From Syntrophales bacterium (GTDB lineage Bacteria > Desulfobacterota > Syntrophia > Syntrophales > UBA2210), in assembly GCA_963662405.2 (NCBI GenBank), contig CAXXKT010000001.1, positions 1,312,001-1,376,000 on the forward strand: DNA of 64,000 bases, written 5' to 3'. Below are positions 10,514 to 49,291 of the stretch, one piece after another; position 1 is the first letter of the stretch; every line of letters starts with the position of its first letter. The translations under genes were made by a program, and so were the position numbers. The notes below the pieces were generated by a model. That model was not told the origin of the DNA. It worked only from the letters and a program-made list of their open reading frames with translations, and did not search any database.

Positions 10514-10542
10514 AGTATAGAAAAGTCCCCCTCCCCTGTCAA
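10514..10542 (-). promoter_or_regulatory. Sigma70-type promoter of the carB-purF operon
   Basis: Minus strand TTGACA-17 nt-TATACT, about 50 nt upstream of the carB start. Confidence 0.75.
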
Positions 10543-17679: not shown

Positions 17680-17708
17680 ATAATACAGGTTTAGCGCACA
17701 GCTGTCAA
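17680..17708 (-). promoter_or_regulatory. Sigma70-type promoter of the HD-GYP gene
   Basis: Minus strand TTGACA-17 nt-TATTAT. Confidence 0.65.
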
Positions 17709-40440: not shown

Positions 40441-40884
40441 ATGGACATGCAAAAACAGATATCGGATGCGATGATCACGGCGGCCAAGGAGAAGGATAAA
40501 GAAACCTTATCGACTCTCCGCATGATCAAATCGGCCTTGCATAATAAAGAGATAGATCTCAAGGATAAATTCGGCGAGACGGAGATGCTGCAGGTGCTCG
40601 CCTCGATGGTCAAGCAGCGCAGGGACTCCGTCGAGCAATTCAAAGAGGGCGGACGGCTCGAGCTTGCCGAAAAGGAGACGAGAGAGATCGCGGTTATCCA
40701 GCGATTTATGCCCCTACAGTTGTCTGAAGAAGAGTTGCGTACCCTGATCGAGCAAGCAATTGCGGAGGCCGGTGCGACCGGCATTCGGGACATGGGAAAG
40801 GTAATGAAACTTTTGATGCCCCGCGTGACGGGAAAAGCCGACGGCAAGGCCGTGGGAGAGGCAGTCAAGGTACAGTTGTCCTAG
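40441..40884 (+). CDS. GatB/YqeY domain protein
   Basis: KQRRDSVEQF..GGR.ELAEKE, DMGKVM, GKADGK. Confidence 0.92.
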   Translation: MDMQKQISDAMITAAKEKDKETLSTLRMIKSALHNKEIDLKDKFGETEMLQVLASMVKQRRDSVEQFKEGGRLELAEKETREIAVIQRFMPLQLSEEELRTLIEQAIAEAGATGIRDMGKVMKLLMPRVTGKADGKAVGEAVKVQLS

Positions 40885-40930: not shown

Positions 40931-42724
40931 GTGAAGGGATATATTCCTCAGGAAAAGATAGGGGAAATCAAAAGCAGGGTCGGTATCGTCGATCTCATTT
41001 CCGGATATGTCACCCTGAAGAAGGCCGGCAGGAACTTTGTCGGGCTTTGCCCTTTTCACAAGGAAAAGACCCCTTCCTTCAGCGTGAATCCCGAGAAGCA
41101 GATCTTTTATTGCTTCGGCTGCGGGGAAGGGGGGGATATCTTTGCCTTCCTGATGAAGCTCAATGGGATTTCCTTCGCCGAGTCGGCGAGATACCTGGCG
41201 AAAAAGGCGGGGGTTTCTCTCCCGGTCAAACCGCTGACCGGTGCAGAGAAAACCAGGGAGACGGAGAAGGAAAAACTGTACCGGATCAACGCGATTGCTG
41301 CGGAATTCTTTTCACGGCAGCTTTCTTTACAGCGCGGTCACCCGGCCCGGCAGTACCTGAATATCCGCAAGATGGAGAATACCATCGTTGAGACGTTTCA
41401 TCTGGGGTATGCCCCGGAAGGATGGAGTCATCTCGTTTCCTATCTGGGGGAGAGAAAAGTTCCCCTCGTCCTTGCCGAGAGGGCCGGACTTGTCGTATCC
41501 AAAGAAACGAGTGGATACTATGACCGGTTTCGTAAGAGGTTGATTTTTCCGATAGAAGATTTGAGCGGGAGGGTGGTGGCATTCGGCGGCCGGGCCATTG
41601 ACGATGCGGATATGCCCAAGTATCTCAATTCTCCCGAGTCGCCCGTTTATACCAAGGGAAAGCTTCTATACGGCCTGTCCCGAACGAAAGATGCCGTCCG
41701 TGACAGAGATTATGCCATCTTGGTCGAAGGATATATCGATCTCCTCTCTTTATGGAATGCGGGGGTGAACAACGTAGTCGCGACTCTCGGAACGGCGCTG
41801 ACCCGGGATCAGGTCGGGTTGATCAGGCGCTTTACGCGGAACGTTGCCGTCATCTTTGATCCCGATGAGGCGGGGAGGCATGCCGTGGAACGGAGCCTGA
41901 AGCTGTTCCTTGAGGAAAGAATGCATGCCCGCGTGGTCGTTCTCCCCGAAGGATGTGATCCGGATGATTATGTCAAACACAATGGCGCGCCGGCCCTTGA
42001 GGAGTTGATCGCCCGCTCCCCGATGATGGTCGATTACTACGTCGACGTGATCATGGGAGGGGGAGGAACGTTTGAACACGACCTGGATGCCATGCGGGAT
42101 TCGATATCGTTCATCAGGACGATTGCTGATCCGATCGAACGGGATCTCTTTATCAAACGGGTCTCCGAACGGCTCGGCATCGACCAGAAACTCCTTAAGG
42201 ATCGGGTGGAAAAGGTCTTTCCGAAACAGAAGGGCGCCGTTCCTCCCCTTACTTATACACCGGGTGGAGGGGTGGACAAGGTTGACATGGTGGAATTAAA
42301 CCTTATCTATATGATGATGGAATATCCGGAGCATATTTCCGTTGTTGCTGAGGAGGGGATCATCGATTCATTCGGCTCGGAAGAGTTGAAAAAATTGGGG
42401 AATACCATTATCGAAAGGAAGGGAGATAGCAGTTCCCTGATCCGTGATCTGGGAGACGGGCCGGTAAAAGCCCGGCTCTTGCAGTTGATGATGGAACGAC
42501 CCTTCCCGGATAGTGAGATTGCGGGGAAGGTATTGCATGACAATATCAGGCAAGTACGAAACAAATGGTTCAAGGGCAGGCGGGCCCTTCTGAAAAAGGA
42601 GCTGATCCGAGCACAACAGGCGGGCGACAGGACTTTGAGTGACAGTCTGCTCAGGGATAAAGATAAATTGCTAAAGGAAGAGAGAGGATTGGTCAACAAT
42701 GAAAAAGGTGATCAAATCGGATGA
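40931..42724 (+). CDS. dnaG: DNA primase
   Basis: CPFH...CFGC Zn finger, FGGR, KYLNSPE, TOPRIM VEGYID / DPDEAG / DPDD. Confidence 0.97.
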
Positions 42725-44462
42725 AGTCAACAAACTTATTTCGTTAGGCAAGGGAAAAGGATTCCTCACGTATGACGATATCAACGATATGCTGCCGTCC
42801 GACGTTATATTCTCAGACCAGATAGATGACATCCTAACGGTCTTTCATGAGAAAAACATTGAAGTGGTCGATGTCGAAAGAGACGAGAAAGATACCGATA
42901 AACACGGGGAAAAAACCGATGAGGACGAAGAGAAAGGGATGAAGGACGAGATTCCTCCCCTCCCGGTATCAGCCCTCGGCAAGACGGGAGACCCCGTTAA
43001 GATGTACCTGAGAGAGATGGGGATGGTATCCCTCCTCAGTCGTGAGGAAGAGGTGCGAATCGCCAAGAAGATTGAGAAGGGGGAAAAGAAGATCATGGAG
43101 TCCCTCTTCAGCCTGCCGGTCTTTATCGGAGAGGTGGTGGAGATCGGGGAAAAGCTTCAAACAGGTGAGGTCCGGATCAAAACGGTTGTCGACAACCTTG
43201 AAGACGAAAGTGGTTTTACCGAGGAGGAAGTGTACCAAGAACGAGTGCAGAAGCTTGCCTCCAAGGTTGGACAACTGGACGCGCGGAATACCGTTCTGAG
43301 GGACAATTTAAAGAAGGGAGGACTGGCGGATGCGGATGAGAAAGCCATCAGGGATGAACTGGAGAAAAACGGCAAACGGATTGTGAAGCTCTGCAAGGAT
43401 ATCAATTTCAATAAACGTCGCATCAGTGCGATGGTTGCCAGGCTTAACGACACCGTTGCTGCTTTAAACGAGGGCGAGCGAGCGATACAGAAGTGCGTGG
43501 AAGAAGCGGGCATGTCACTCAACGCGTTGGATCGGTTGTTTTCCCGCATGAGGGCCGGTGAAGAGGAAGAGATCTCCACGGAAACGGGTATAGCGGTCAA
43601 AACGATCCGTGAGTACGAGCGGACAGTTCGAGAAGCCCGGAATACCAGAAAGAGAATAGCGGCTCAGATCGGTGTCCCCAAAGAGACATTGAAGATGATC
43701 GTGACCTCCATCAAGGGGGGAGAGTCCGAGGCGAACCGGGCGAAGAGAAAATTGATCAAGGCCAACCTCCGTCTGGTTGTCAGTATTGCCAAGAAATATA
43801 CAAACAGGGGTCTGCAGTTCCTGGATCTTATCCAGGAAGGGAATGTCGGATTGATGAAGGCCGTCGAGAAATTTGAGTACCAGCGGGGGTATAAGTTCTC
43901 CACGTATGCAACGTGGTGGATCAGGCAGGCCATCACGCGGGCCATCGCTGATCAGGCGCGGACAATACGGATCCCGGTTCACATGATCGAAACCATCAAT
44001 AAACTGATCAGGACGTCGCGGTACCTGGTGCAGGAACTGGGGAGGGAACCGACCCCCGCCGAGATCGCGGAAAAGATGGAGTTTCCTCTTGATAAGGTGC
44101 GAAAGGTATTGAAGATTGCCAAGGAGCCGATATCTTTGGAGACCCCCATCGGGGAAGAGGAGGATAGCTCTCTCGGGGATTTCATCGAGGATAAGAAGGT
44201 CATGTCTCCCTCCGATGCCACCATGAACATGGATCTCGCGCAGCAGACCAGGAAGATCCTATCCACCTTGACGCCGCGCGAGGAAAAGGTGCTCAGGATG
44301 CGCTTCGGGATCAGTGAAAAAGCCGACGCCGGGTTCAGCCCGGACAGGACAAGCGAATATTCCAATGACACGGTGGAACGGGCCATGCAGATCGAAGATA
44401 ATGTCCTGAAGAAGATGAGAGGTACATCAAGGCGCAGAGAGATCAAGGGAGGAATCAAATAG
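42699..44462 (+). CDS. rpoD: RNA polymerase sigma-70 factor RpoD with atypical region 4.2
   Basis: Region 1.1 ([14 protein letters not shown]), 1.2 ([11 protein letters not shown]), 2 ([13 protein letters not shown]...[16 protein letters not shown]), 3 and 4.1 intact; region 4.2 diverged. Confidence 0.9.
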
Positions 44463-44523
44463 GGCTTCCCCCTTGGCATTACAAGAGCGCGTTTCATTAT
44501 CCCCTGTCAGGAGTGTAAGAAGA

Positions 44524-44907
44524 TCAGTCGCAGACGGCGACAACCTCGATCTCCAACGGGGCATCTTTGGGGAGACGATTGACCGCCACGCAGCTCCTGG
44601 CGGGACGGGATTCTCCAAAGTACTGTGTGTAGATCGTGTTGAACTGATCAAACAGGGTCATGTCGGTCAAGAAGATCGTGACCTTTACCACGCGGTCGAG
44701 GTTCGAATGAGCATTCTCCAGAATATGTGTCAGGTTGTCGAGCACGGTTCGCACCTGGAGCTCGAAAGGCCCCGTTACCAACTGACCCGTTTTCGAGTTC
44801 ATCGGGATCTGCCCGGAAACGTACAACCAGCCCCCGGCCCTGACCGCCTGAGAGTAAGGCCCTATCGGGATAGGGGCCCGTTCGGTATAGACAATCTCTT
44901 TGTCCAT
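44524..44907 (-). CDS. ridA: RidA/YjgF family enamine/imine deaminase
   Basis: PIGPYSQA, VSGQIP, KVTIFL, PARSCV, LPK...EIE. Confidence 0.92.
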   Translation of the reverse strand: MDKEIVYTERAPIPIGPYSQAVRAGGWLYVSGQIPMNSKTGQLVTGPFELQVRTVLDNLTHILENAHSNLDRVVKVTIFLTDMTLFDQFNTIYTQYFGESRPARSCVAVNRLPKDAPLEIEVVAVCD

Positions 44908-45027
44908 AATGCCCTCCTTTCCCCACCGGTACTTGACAACACAACCGGGGAGATGTCAATCAAATAGTTGCACCAGGGATGGACCTCTGCTAAACCACCT
45001 CTATGTGAGATAAGGATGCAGCCGACG

Positions 45028-46221
45028 ATGGATGTGAAAACCATACTGACTGTTACACAGTTGACAGAGGTCATTAAAGAAACGCTGGAGGGATGCTTCG
45101 GCGCCGTTTGGATCACCGGTGAGATATCCAATCTTCGGCGCCCCGCTTCAGGCCACCTCTATGCGACCCTCAAAGACGAGAAGAGCCAGATACGCATGGT
45201 CGCCTTCCGGGGGTCGGTCGCGCGGCTGGGGTTTGATCTTGAAGACGGGATGAAGATTATCTGCCGGGGGAGGTTGAATGTCTATCCGGCCCGTGGCGAA
45301 TATCAGATCATTATCGATGCTGCTGAACCGAAGGGGCTCGGTGCCCTCCAGATGGCCTTCGAGCAGCTGAAAGTGCGCCTGGAGAAGGAGGGGTTGTTCG
45401 ATCATTCCCATAAGCGGAAAATCCCCTTTCTCCCCGGAAAGATCGGAATTGTCACCTCTTCTTCCGGCGCGGCCCTCCGGGATATCCTGAATATTACGGG
45501 GAGGAGGTTCCCCTCCGTCGATGTCGTGATCGCCCCCGCGGCCGTTCAGGGAGTCGAGGCGCCCCGGGAGATATGCAGTGCCGTGGCGGATCTCAATGAG
45601 GTTGGTGTTGATGTCATCATCGTCACTCGGGGGGGAGGGTCGCTTGAGGATCTCTTCTGTTTTAATGACGAACAAGTCGCCCGGGCAATCCGGGCCTCGA
45701 AGATTCCCGTCATCTCGGCCGTCGGCCATGAGATCGACTTCACGATCGCCGATTTCGCGGCCGATCTCAGGGCTCCGACCCCCTCTGCGGCCGCCGAGTT
45801 GGTGGTCCCCGATACGAGGGTCCTGATGGAACGAACACAGAGGCTGAGGTCACAGCTGATACATGCCTCTCATATGGTGTTGCGGGAGCTGAAAACGAGG
45901 GCGGTCTTTGTCGCGGAAGGTCTGCGCGATCCGAAGGAGAGGATTGCCGACCTGCGGGTGAGGGTTGAAAATCTCCGAGGCGAAGCGGGATCCCGGATAC
46001 AAACCCGTATTGATACCCTTCGGGGTGTCCTGCAGGCGGAGATGGCCCTCTTGGACACTCTCAGTCCCTTGGCCGTACTGGGAAGGGGTTTCGGGATCGT
46101 CCGGTTGGCCGACGGGTCCGTCGTTAGGGATGCGGGGATACTGGCGGTGGATGAGGGTGTCGATGTGCGGGTTGCATCGGGAAGTTTCACGGCGCGAGTG
46201 ACCACTATTTCACGGGAGTAA
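45028..46221 (+). CDS. xseA: Exodeoxyribonuclease VII large subunit
   Basis: GEISN, SGHLY, RGGGSLEDL, SAVGHEID, APTPSAAAE, LGRGF; start approximate. Confidence 0.95.
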   Translation: MDVKTILTVTQLTEVIKETLEGCFGAVWITGEISNLRRPASGHLYATLKDEKSQIRMVAFRGSVARLGFDLEDGMKIICRGRLNVYPARGEYQIIIDAAEPKGLGALQMAFEQLKVRLEKEGLFDHSHKRKIPFLPGKIGIVTSSSGAALRDILNITGRRFPSVDVVIAPAAVQGVEAPREICSAVADLNEVGVDVIIVTRGGGSLEDLFCFNDEQVARAIRASKIPVISAVGHEIDFTIADFAADLRAPTPSAAAELVVPDTRVLMERTQRLRSQLIHASHMVLRELKTRAVFVAEGLRDPKERIADLRVRVENLRGEAGSRIQTRIDTLRGVLQAEMALLDTLSPLAVLGRGFGIVRLADGSVVRDAGILAVDEGVDVRVASGSFTARVTTISRE

Positions 46222-46225
46222 AAGG

Positions 46226-46480
46226 ATGGCGGAAAAAACGTTTGAGAAGGCCCTGGAAGAACTGGAAGCGATTGTAAAAAAGATGGAAGGCGGGGATTTG
46301 TCTCTTGATGATTCGCTCAAGGCCTTCGAAGAGGGGATCAGACTCTCCCGGTTTTGCACCGACAGGCTGGAGGAGACGGAGAGAAAGATCGAAATCCTGC
46401 TCAGGGATGATGATGTCCTGAAGACTGAACCATTTGAGAAGAAGAATGGAGATGATCGTGAATCAACCGATATCACTTGA
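46226..46480 (+). CDS. xseB: Exodeoxyribonuclease VII small subunit
   Basis: FEKALEELEAIV...LSLDDSLKAFEEG. Confidence 0.95.
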   Translation: MAEKTFEKALEELEAIVKKMEGGDLSLDDSLKAFEEGIRLSRFCTDRLEETERKIEILLRDDDVLKTEPFEKKNGDDRESTDIT

Positions 46481-47354
46481 GACATATCTCGCGGGACGGA
46501 AAGAAGTGGTCGATCGGGCTCTTGACGAATACCTCCCGGCGGTGGTCGGTGTTTCTTCCGAGATCGTCGAGGCAATGCGCTACTCGCTTTTCGCCGGCGG
46601 GAAACGGCTCCGGCCGATCCTCTGTATGGCCTCGGCGGAGGCGGTCGGCGGGAGTATGCGGACGGCACTTCCCATTGCATGTGCCATTGAGATGGTCCAT
46701 ACCTATTCCCTGATACATGATGACCTTCCGGCGATGGATAATGATGCCTATCGGCGGGGGAAGCCCACAAATCACAGGGTGTTCGGGGAAGGGATCGCGA
46801 TTCTGGCGGGGGATGCCCTCCTGACGGAGGCCTTCTGCCTCCTCTCCGGTCGACACCCGGGGATTCCTCCTGAAAAGGGGCTGACTGTTTTGCATGAGGT
46901 CGCTCGGGCTGCGGGTTTTCAGGGGATGGTGGGTGGTCAGGTGGCGGATCTCAGGGCTGAGGGGGAGGTGGTGGACCGGCAACAGGTGGACTATATCCAC
47001 ACACACAAGACACAGGCCCTCATTACCGTTTCCATCCGCGCGGGGGCACTGCTGGCGGATGCCGGGATAGATGATCTCAATGCCCTCTCGGCGTATGGGG
47101 ACATGACGGGACTTGCCTTTCAGATAGCGGATGATATCTTGGACATCGAAAGTTCCCGGAAGGCCCTGGGGAAGGATACCGGCAGCGATGAAGGGCGCGG
47201 TAAGGCAACCTATCCCGCCCTGATCGGACTTGAAAGGTCCCGGGAAGAGATGTCCCGATTGGTCGAGGATGCCCTGTCGGCGATACGTCGGTTCGATGAT
47301 CGGATCGATCCCCTGCGGATGATCGCACGGTTCATCGCAGAGCGGAAATCGTAG
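46458..47354 (+). CDS. ispA: Polyprenyl (farnesyl/geranylgeranyl) diphosphate synthase
   Basis: [35 protein letters not shown]. Confidence 0.93.
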
Positions 47355-47401
47355 GGTGCGTTTCGGGTCGATGGGGACCGCGAATCGCGGGAGAAACAGG
47401 T

Positions 47402-49291
47402 ATGAATAACGAAAACGGAATACTGGAGGGGATCAACGATCCTGAAGACATACGATGCCTCGGCATTGAAGAACTGAAAACCCTGGCCGGCGAAATCAGG
47501 CAGATGATACTGAAGGTTGTCTCCGTAAACGGCGGGCACCTGGCCCCCTCGTTGGGGGCGGTTGAACTGGCCCTGGCCATCCATTATGTCTTTGATACTC
47601 CGCGGGACAAGGTCATCTGGGATGTGGGGCACCAGGCATATGCACACAAGATCGTTACGGGGAGGAGACAGGCGTTTCACACCCTCAGAAAGAAGGGGGG
47701 AGTCAGCGGTTTTCCCAAGAGACAGGAGAGTGTCTATGACGTATTCGGCGCGGGCCACAGCAGCACCTCCATCTCCGCAGCGGCCGGTATCGCCGATGCC
47801 CGATGCCTGAAGGAACAGCATTTCAAGGTGATCGCCGTCATCGGGGATGGGTCTATGACCGCCGGAATGGCATTTGAGGCCCTCAATTGGTCCGGGGAGC
47901 GGGAGAAGGACCTGATCGTTATCCTGAATGACAACGAGATGTCCATTTCCCCGAACGTGGGGGCCATGTCTTCCTACCTGAATCGTGTCATGACGGGGCA
48001 GCAGATCACGCGCCTCCGGGCAAAGATCCACGATTTTCTGAAGACCGTCCCCGGGGTGGGAGAGCAGGTGATCAAATTTGCCCGGAGGGCTGAAGAGTCG
48101 CTCAAGGGTTTCGTGGTCCCGGGGATGCTCTTTGAAGAACTGGGGTTCAAGTATATCGGTCCCCTTGAAGGCCACCGGTTGGATCACCTGATCAAAAATC
48201 TCCAGAACGTACGAGGTATGGAGCGGCCTGTCCTGGTGCATGTCATCACTCGAAAGGGGAAGGGGTACCGCTTTGCCGAGGAGGACCCCGCCCGATTCCA
48301 TGGAATCGGGCCCTTTAATGTCGAAACGGGAGAGACAATCAGCCAGAATCATTCCCGGAAATCATACACGCAGGTCTTCGGCCAGACGGTGTTGGAACTC
48401 GCCCGCGAAAATCCTGCCGTTGTTGCGATCACGGCCGCGATGATGAGCGGGACCGGTCTCGACCGGTTTGCCCGTGAGATCCCCGAGCGGTTTTACGATG
48501 TCGGAATCGCCGAGCAGCACGGGGTTACCTTTGCCGCAGGACTCGCCACCGAGGGATTGATCCCCATTGTTGCGATCTACTCCACCTTCCTGCAGCGGGC
48601 CTACGACCAAGTGCTTCATGACGTGTGCCTGCAGAATCTTCCCGTCGTTTTCGCCCTCGACCGGGGGGGGGTCGTCGGGGATGACGGCCCGACACATCAC
48701 GGACTCTTCGATTTCGTCTACCTGCGATCCATTCCGAATATGGTGGTAATGGCCCCGAAGGATGAAAACGAACTGCAACATATGCTCAAGACTGCCGTGG
48801 AGTGCGGCGGCCCCGTTTCAATACGCTATCCCCGCGGCGCCGGGATGGGAGTTTCCCTCGACGAACGACCTGCCTGTATCGAAATCGGAAAGGCAGAGAT
48901 TCTCCGAGAAGGGAAGGATGTTGTCATCATGGCAATCGGATCCACCGTGTATCCCTCCCTCGAAGCTGCGGAAGTCCTTGCCGGCGAAGGGATTGAGGCG
49001 ACCGTTGTCAACAGCCGTTTCGTTAAACCCCTCGACAGGGATCTGTTGTGTAACATCTCATCCTCGTGTAAGCGGGTTGTTACGGTTGAAGAGCATGTCC
49101 TGATGGGCGGGTTCGGCAGTGCCGTTCTCGAGTTGTTTGAAGAAACAGGGCTGATGGGAATTGCCGTAAAGCGGGTCGGTATCGCTGACGAATTTGTAGA
49201 ACAGGGGACGCAGGCCGAACTGCGGAGACAACAGGGGGTCGATGCCCGGGGGATCGTGGAGTCCGTCAGAAGGATGGTAACTCTATCGTGA
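47402..49291 (+). CDS. dxs: 1-deoxy-D-xylulose-5-phosphate synthase
   Basis: [45 protein letters not shown]. Confidence 0.97.

Follow-up and report, generated by a model that had tools for sequence, protein, structure and literature searches.

A probable two-chain housekeeping sigma factor in Syntrophales, with the −35-reading module encoded by a separate small gene

Introduction

A primary sigma factor is usually regarded as one chain whose region 4.2 hardly varies. The rpoD gene found in a 64,000-nucleotide stretch of a Syntrophales genome (referred to below as the window) encodes a protein in which this region is eroded, and it raises the question of what reads the −35 element in this bacterium. 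In sigma70, the residues that read the −35 element are R584, E585, and R588; without region 4.2, the protein shows little activity on a consensus −35/−10 promoter and is able to transcribe extended −10 promoters (PMC2613000).

Results

The rpoD gene of the window encodes an intact sigma factor up to region 4.1

The rpoD gene (positions 42699 to 44462, plus strand; 587 amino acids) lies, as the preliminary description of the window had stated, in the dnaG-rpoD locus, behind a yqeY-like gene (40441 to 40884, plus strand) and the primase gene dnaG (40931 to 42724, plus strand), which marks the housekeeping locus. Its 3′ surroundings (44524 to 49291) are an ordinary housekeeping context, with what we take to be a RidA-like gene (44524 to 44907, minus strand) converging on rpoD and, within 44968 to 49291 on the plus strand, presumably xseA, xseB, ispA, and dxs-like genes. 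The regions recognized in that description also hold up in profile searches: regions 1.1, 1.2, 2, and 3 match Pfam strongly, and the protein clears the RpoD equivalog PRK05658 (630.7 versus a cutoff of 555); it scores just below the cutoff of TIGR02393 (352.1 versus 354), and its match to region 4 is weak (31 bits). Region 2, which serves core binding and −10 recognition and ends in YATWWIRQ, is intact (43767 to 43928, plus strand), and the region 4.1 helix (44268 to 44312, plus strand) is nearly invariant across the order.

Downstream of region 4.1, alignment to solved RpoD/SigA chains bore out what had been read from the letters: the chain lacks the TLEEVG helix, has gained two residues, and reads TVERAMQ in place of TRERIRQ. 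In E. coli numbering, R584 is replaced by V and R588 by M, and E585 is kept. The former first helix of the helix-turn-helix (HTH) and its turn (44328 to 44369, plus strand) are hypervariable in sequence and length, and the remaining codons (44370 to 44462, plus strand) specify a remnant of the recognition helix and the C-terminal tail. The C-terminal half of this 4.2 remnant is still conserved in the host's family and is eroded or absent in the other families of the order. A structure prediction of domain 4, one of the checks that had been proposed, was made for the C-terminal 111 residues (mean pLDDT, 66) and gave confident 4.1 helices (pLDDT of about 90), a low-confidence loop (the former first helix falling under 50 in part), and one long helix, with no HTH after region 4.1. 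An intact region 4.2 HTH is thus absent from the host RpoD chain by alignment, by model, and by the dN/dS values given below.

The eroded 3′ end is real sequence and not an assembly error, because contigs of two studies are gap-free there and all 40 readable orthologs of the order are eroded at the same place. The contig of one sequencing run, which may be the source sample, covers positions 43980 to 45000 with 0 differences and 0 gaps, and contigs of a second study align without gaps to positions 43815 to 44349 (12 differences), 44355 to 44560 (2 differences), and 44386 to 44556 (2 differences). The misassembly or compensating indels that the preliminary description had considered did not appear in these pieces between 43815 and 45000.

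RpoD is the only group 1 sigma factor of the genome

The genome comprises 3.8 Mb in three contigs and is 100% complete. The second intact RpoD that had been expected elsewhere was not found in it by tblastn, by a motif scan, or by a Pfam region 4 search. Six proteins of the genome match region 4, namely, RpoD, RpoH, FliA, one extracytoplasmic function (ECF) sigma factor, a short HTH protein that is presumably LuxR-like, and a protein of 91 residues; a gene with an RpoN box is also present. The idea of a spare sigma factor or a competitor for core RNA polymerase fails on two counts, as this is the only group 1 sigma factor and the purifying selection on its regions 2 to 4.1 is extreme. From the sole copy and the purifying selection, we infer that RpoD would be essential and direct the bulk of transcription. 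In one Syntrophorhabdaceae genome (G440, loci L363 to L368), six RpoD-like sigma factors were seen in frames of 514 to 540 amino acids, with region 4.2 intact in those that were read.

Loss of region 4.2 is common to the whole order

Region 4.2 of RpoD is eroded in 40 of the 40 Syntrophales genomes with a readable RpoD (39 of the 41 genomes of the order set, in which erosion begins after RFGI and which were read in two rounds of 30 and 9, plus the genome G076). The filler that replaces the region differs in each, and the frames are open. Neither recent decay nor a unique allele among canonical relatives, both raised in the preliminary description, fits a loss shared in this way. One RpoD ends about 25 residues past region 4.1. 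No RpoD was recovered from G035 (86% complete), and G032 (85% complete, 5% contaminated) yielded just an intact-4.2 sigma factor, which shows 52% identity, lies on a 3-kb contig, and forms a long branch outside the RpoD clade of the order. Outside the order and the family termed f20 here, the best-matching sigma factor has an intact region 4.2 in 112 of 112 readable genomes (115 were examined, of which 2 had no RpoD match and 1 was cut by a contig end; 108 were judged by eye from match coordinates and 4 from fetched sequences). In another genome, the RpoD C terminus is broken by an apparent frameshift that leaves region 4.2 in a separate frame of 115 amino acids (L375, G182:C1:499700-500040), probably a sequencing error.

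The region-by-region comparison of dN/dS that had been suggested gave a clear pattern within the genus (8 sequences; counts pooled over pairs, synonymous sites approaching saturation at the family level): 0.006 for regions 2 to 3.0 and 0.012 for regions 3.2 to 4.1, versus 0.62 for the first HTH helix (0.58 to 0.62 with its turn). The front of the recognition helix and the tail gave 0.12 and 0.026, respectively. The first HTH helix therefore drifts nearly neutrally, and the low values of regions 2 to 4.1 reflect extreme purifying selection.

Promoters with −35 boxes appear to remain in use

The two promoter-like sites singled out in the preliminary description, TTGACA-17-TATACT (10514 to 10542) and TTGACA-17-TATTAT (17680 to 17708), are present, both on the minus strand. 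In noncoding DNA of the genome, TTGACA followed by TAnnnT shows a peak at a spacing of 17 bp (53 of 504 sites), which was seen neither in coding DNA nor with three control hexamers. Of the intergenic hexamers, CTTGAC shows the strongest enrichment. Across 1,673 gene-oriented upstream regions, TAnnnT stands 17 bp from 78 of 527 TTGACN sites, with 24 at 16 bp, 28 at 18 bp, and 1 to 17 at other spacings. Genome-wide, TTGACA-17-TAnnnT occurs 85 times versus 14 times for a reversed control, a count inside the range of four genomes with intact RpoD (74 versus 8, 245 versus 13, 34 versus 7, and 103 versus 33); three other genomes of the order gave 71 versus 8, 114 versus 26, and 230 versus 51 sites at spacings of 17 and 20 bp, respectively. 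Ahead of the 16S gene stand TTGACT-17-TATAAA and TTGACA-17-TAGAAA in tandem (G000:C1, about 1300200 to 1300629), each with an upstream A/T tract, an arrangement that we take to resemble rrn P1/P2. A result that points the other way is that strong −35 sites turned up, in a strict but crude scan, before only 6 of 49 tRNA genes (3 of them antisense) and in 3 of 20 marker gene rows; no CIRCE element was seen in the promoter scan.

Judged by these counts, TTGACA −35 boxes seem to remain in use and are as common as in relatives with intact RpoD. Since sigma70 without region 4.2 is hardly active on −35/−10 promoters, another protein must supply the −35 reader, in agreement with the earlier expectation that some other factor reads these boxes.

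A small cysteine-rich protein carries a canonical region 4.2

The missing −35 reader is most likely the 91-residue protein, a stand-alone region 4.2 protein encoded outside the window and on a contig different from that of rpoD (G000:C2:313702-313977, loci L003/L037, plus strand). Among solved structures, its residues 45 to 84 best match region 4 of RpoD/SigA (region 4.2), with a canonical TLEEVG…TRERIRQIE HTH, and its residues 1 to 44 hold four cysteines where region 4.1 would stand. Every one of 44 aligned sequences has these cysteines (C7, C18, C23, and C35), and the half of the protein that contains them probably binds zinc. The HTH has a dN/dS of 0 in the genus, with no amino acid change despite a pS of 0.61, and a pN/pS of 0.02 in the family; all 38 distinct HTH variants retain TRER[IV]RQIE. 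With the model of the small protein, Foldseek returned no match at an E value of ≤0.001 (sigma region 4 filled its top rows), and a wide fold search gave a best Z score of 5.0 to generic helices, with residues 1 to 42 barely covered.

The protein is present at full length in 37 of the 41 genomes of the order, with 73 to 100% identity. Its gene is cut by a contig end in G035 and was not found in G009, G012, and G029. It is usually single and chromosomal and converges on an operon of what we take to be rpsA and sppA. In G009 and G012 the neighboring sppA ends within 70 bases of the contig edge, and in G029 the small gene is missing together with sppA and the rpsA ortholog, which suggests that the three absences are assembly gaps; the enoyl-CoA hydratase neighbor is a poor marker of gaps, being missing also in G032, which has the small gene. 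Upstream of the small gene, TTGACA-16/17-TAnnnT was found in 11 of 14 loci checked (including L037, upstream of 1501, and 10 orthologous loci), implying autoregulation if the small protein is the −35 reader.

The small protein occurs together with 4.2-less sigma factors

A profile that included distant relatives found the whole small protein in at least 17 of 401 genomes of the phylum, namely, in 15 of 15 Syntrophales and 2 of 2 genomes of family f20, a count drawn from the best 150 of 503 matches with up to 12 candidates scored per genome, so that very distant relatives could be hidden. In other genomes of the phylum, the best match covers only the HTH half, among the matches listed. Short open frames among these HTH-only matches were considered as relatives of the small protein; the four that were fetched are all RpoD fragments.

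Both f20 genomes (G080 and G042) carry a 4.2-less group 1 sigma factor in a frame of 578 residues. Four further genomes, picked for the small gene alone, all have a 4.2-less RpoD, among them Syntrophus aciditrophicus and a genome with a 64%-identical copy of the small protein, and a Syntrophorhabdaceae genome picked for an HTH-only match has intact copies of region 4.2. The boundaries of the two proteins are complementary: the small protein covers positions 18 to 50 of Pfam Sigma70_r4 and the 4.2-less f20 sigma factor covers positions 1 to 18, and the sigma-like part of the small protein starts where RpoD conservation stops.

In G080, an intact dnaG-linked RpoD (L277, G080:C2; 494 amino acids, without a Pfam match to region 1.1) stands beside the 4.2-less paralog, which is given as 568 amino acids and has region 1.1 (L098/L276, G080:C5 and G042:C1); therefore, the pair does not act as the sole housekeeping sigma factor in every genome, and the f20 arrangement is a possible intermediate or parallel state. 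The absence of an intact RpoD from G042 is uninformative, as dnaG is also missing from that assembly. Family f20 forms a separate class that holds only these two genomes. Free quick trees set f20 apart from Syntrophales (G057 was dropped in one and G032, G088, and G070b in another), but a single origin of both was compatible with the AU tests (P = 0.123 on RpoB; P = 0.17 on RpoD). An independent origin in f20 is therefore not claimed, and the co-occurrence rests on at most two evolutionary events.

The small protein is predicted to pack onto RpoD region 4.1

A complex of RpoD residues 501 to 587, the small protein, and zinc was predicted with a score of 0.69, versus 0.02 for the best of three controls, a score that may reflect likeness to solved intact sigma-4, as the halves of a split domain can pass in that way. 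The mark used for this score is reached by 116 of 157 solved complexes and by 2 of 215 mismatched pairs, a calibration that is only roughly valid for these alignments and for the zinc ligand. The runs agree in at least 84% of contacts, and the pLDDT of the small protein is at least 73 in the complex and falls to 49 when RpoD is replaced. In the predicted complex, V531, L532, M534, and R535 of region 4.1 contact the HTH core of the small protein (F45, V50, I61, I64, E65, and A68); E528 also belongs to the predicted docking surface of RpoD. Inside an intact sigma-4, the 4.1 helix likewise packs on the hydrophobic face of the HTH. The DNA-reading residues R58, E59, and R62 of the small protein lie outside the listed interface. 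Further contacts to the small protein come from the remnant helix of RpoD and could explain why that helix is conserved in the host's family. The β-flap tip, on which the rebuilt domain would dock, is unchanged across the order.

Discussion

With a probability that we put at roughly 0.8, on sequence comparison and structure models, Syntrophales divide their housekeeping sigma factor within domain 4 between two proteins, with the −35 element read in trans by the small one. RpoD, as the large subunit, would bind core RNA polymerase, read and melt the −10 element, and keep and offer region 4.1; the small protein would pack on the 4.1 helix and so rebuild domain 4 in trans, and the rebuilt domain would read TTGACA at the normal 17-bp spacing. 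In the holoenzyme, the small protein would then bind the −35 element and presumably be essential. As for its history, a stand-alone 4.2 module was probably gained before region 4.2 of RpoD decayed, and was perhaps viral, because distant relatives sit on viral contigs; once the small protein had taken over, RpoD's own region 4.2 would have been freed from selection and have decayed.

It is unlikely, though the best of the alternatives, that the small protein is instead a TTGACA-reading universal activator of a class II-like kind, or is docked on the flap by itself, and recruits the RpoD holoenzyme without a composite domain 4. Such a role would suit its retention of the canonical C-terminal L..F tail of sigma-4, which has a role in flap binding, its fold when modeled alone, with a helix at residues 36 to 42 ahead of the HTH, and the viral relatives that have no 4.2-less sigma factor nearby. 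It leaves less room for a region 4.1 that is nearly invariant even where RpoD stops right after it (G028), for predicted contacts that join region 4.1 to the HTH core with a partner confidence that collapses without RpoD, and for a 17-bp spacing that stays sharp.

RpoH of the order keeps TRERARQIE in region 4.2, an RpoD-like recognition helix that might read TTGA-type boxes, and it is conceivable, if quite unlikely, that RpoH serves the TTGACA promoters, with RpoD blind to the −35 element and the small protein acting as an unrelated regulator or a repressor that masks −35 boxes. Some alphaproteobacterial RpoH proteins read CTTG-N17-CYTATNT, and CTTGAC is the enriched hexamer in the host genome; strong −35 sites precede rpoH and the clpB operon, and many sites in G038 have CC or CT ahead of the −10 box. 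Against this, the host genome shows neither a C-rich run before the −10 box (22 to 25% C at −13 to −15) nor a TTGA-CCCCAT peak, and its rRNA promoters are of the −35 form. RpoH also appears, from its sequence, to diverge as an alternative sigma factor does, with 73 to 82% identity versus 93 to 97% for RpoD across the same three genome pairs, and the co-occurrence of the small gene with a 4.2-less sigma factor is left unexplained. As a separate observation, contig C6 of G038 carries very dense TTGACATAC...TTCCYTATAnT sites at intervals of a few kilobases, which may mark a large mobile element or an extended promoter specific to that lineage.

The preliminary description had suggested an RpoD that is blind to the −35 element and works on extended −10 elements or with ordinary activators, in which case the small gene would co-occur by shared ancestry only. 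The reported activity of 4.2-less sigma70 on extended −10 promoters (PMC2613000, in the portion accessible) and the single origin of Syntrophales and f20 that was not rejected are compatible with it. We nevertheless consider this reading very unlikely: TG shows no enrichment at the extended −10 position (54 of 878 sites, with 43 to 70 at neighboring offsets), −35 sites are as frequent as in genomes with intact RpoD, no second RpoD is present in the genome, and the HTH of the small protein is invariant and of the RpoD type. An artifact or a recent pseudogenization of rpoD is hardly credible given agreeing, gap-free contigs and 40 of 40 eroded orthologs with open frames.

A split sigma factor would share with other two-subunit sigma factors the complementary division of sigma regions between two genes. 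In SigO-RsoA (YvrI-YvrHa) of Bacillus subtilis, one sigma function is likewise shared between two polypeptides, but that pair, in the part of the source available, is an alternative sigma factor for three operons that is split between domains 2 and 4 and encoded in one operon (PMC8103513), whereas the Syntrophales pair concerns the housekeeping sigma factor, is cut between regions 4.1 and 4.2, and is encoded by unlinked genes on different contigs. Further two-subunit sigma factors are Sig7-Sig8 of Tn916, in which a small region 4-like protein is also a subunit, T4 gp55-gp33, SPO1 gp33-gp34, and the proposed MtvS1-MtvS2 of Francisella (bioRxiv 10.64898/2026.10.01.756105; 10.1101/2024.09.12.612765); as far as the accessible parts of these sources go, they differ in belonging to mobile elements or phages or in being alternative factors, each with promoters of its own, and a primary sigma factor, consensus TTGACA promoters, or a cysteine-rich cap is not described for them. 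The Syntrophales pair is thus not of the SigO-RsoA or Sig7-Sig8 type. In T4 appropriation by AsiA and MotA, too, the role of sigma-4 at the −35 element passes to another protein, but AsiA acts by disabling a sigma-4 that is intact, and the box that MotA reads for the phage is a different one (PMC7403470); in Syntrophales, the loss of region 4.2 is heritable, and the replacement is a copy of canonical sigma-4.2 that should read the normal TTGACA box. Compared with group 1 sigma70 (RpoD/SigA), the locus, regions 1.1 to 4.1, and the promoter consensus are alike, and the −35-reading HTH sits on a separate gene; compared with a sigma factor that uses extended −10 elements only, both the TGn enrichment and the loss of the −35 signal are missing. 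In the literature searched, with most subscription journals and supplements outside its scope, we found no paper on region 4 of Syntrophales RpoD or on a split primary sigma factor.

We lean slightly toward a wider consequence, namely, that housekeeping transcription of a whole order would depend on a sigma factor of two chains, with a small cysteine-ligated module, transcribed separately and possibly derived from a phage, as its −35 reader, so that all −35-dependent transcription could be tuned via the level or the metal or redox state of this module and paralogs of the same fold could retarget the holoenzyme. The two-subunit sigma factors of the cited papers, in the parts accessible, are alternative, phage, or mobile-element factors. 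If the proposed split holds, −35 reading can pass to a detachable subunit across an order of syntrophic anaerobes, which would allow the modularity of sigma-4 to be tested in a natural system, would offer a possible point of global control without anti-sigma factors, would suggest a swappable −35 module for engineering, and would explain an unannotated core gene of the order. It would also serve as a warning that the automatic annotation "RpoD" hides the loss of region 4.2. Syntrophus aciditrophicus, which we take to be a cultured species, carries both parts and could be used for study.

Distant relatives of the small protein were found on viral contigs (ESM Atlas clusters and IMG/VR contigs) as cysteine-rich "Sigma-70 region 4" proteins; the GenBank phage collection gave no match, and a cluster look-up yielded no informative names. 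They have the same four-cysteine and 4.2 architecture but are about 36 to 47% identical, often have an altered recognition helix (TRMRICQIE), and lie without a 4.2-less sigma factor within 3 kb (0 of 14 loci). On seven uncultivated viral contigs (L282, L290, L291, L296, L304, L305, and L325), the changed helix reads TRMR[IV]CQIE, and several of these viral genes adjoin what is presumably a PhoH-like gene. Some Syntrophales genomes and one IMG/VR contig also hold a second copy of the small protein that has diverged further (L370, G001:C166:2963-3461; L371, G004:C11; L151; and L279); these copies may be swappable −35 modules, and one of them reads TLQDIA in its first helix.
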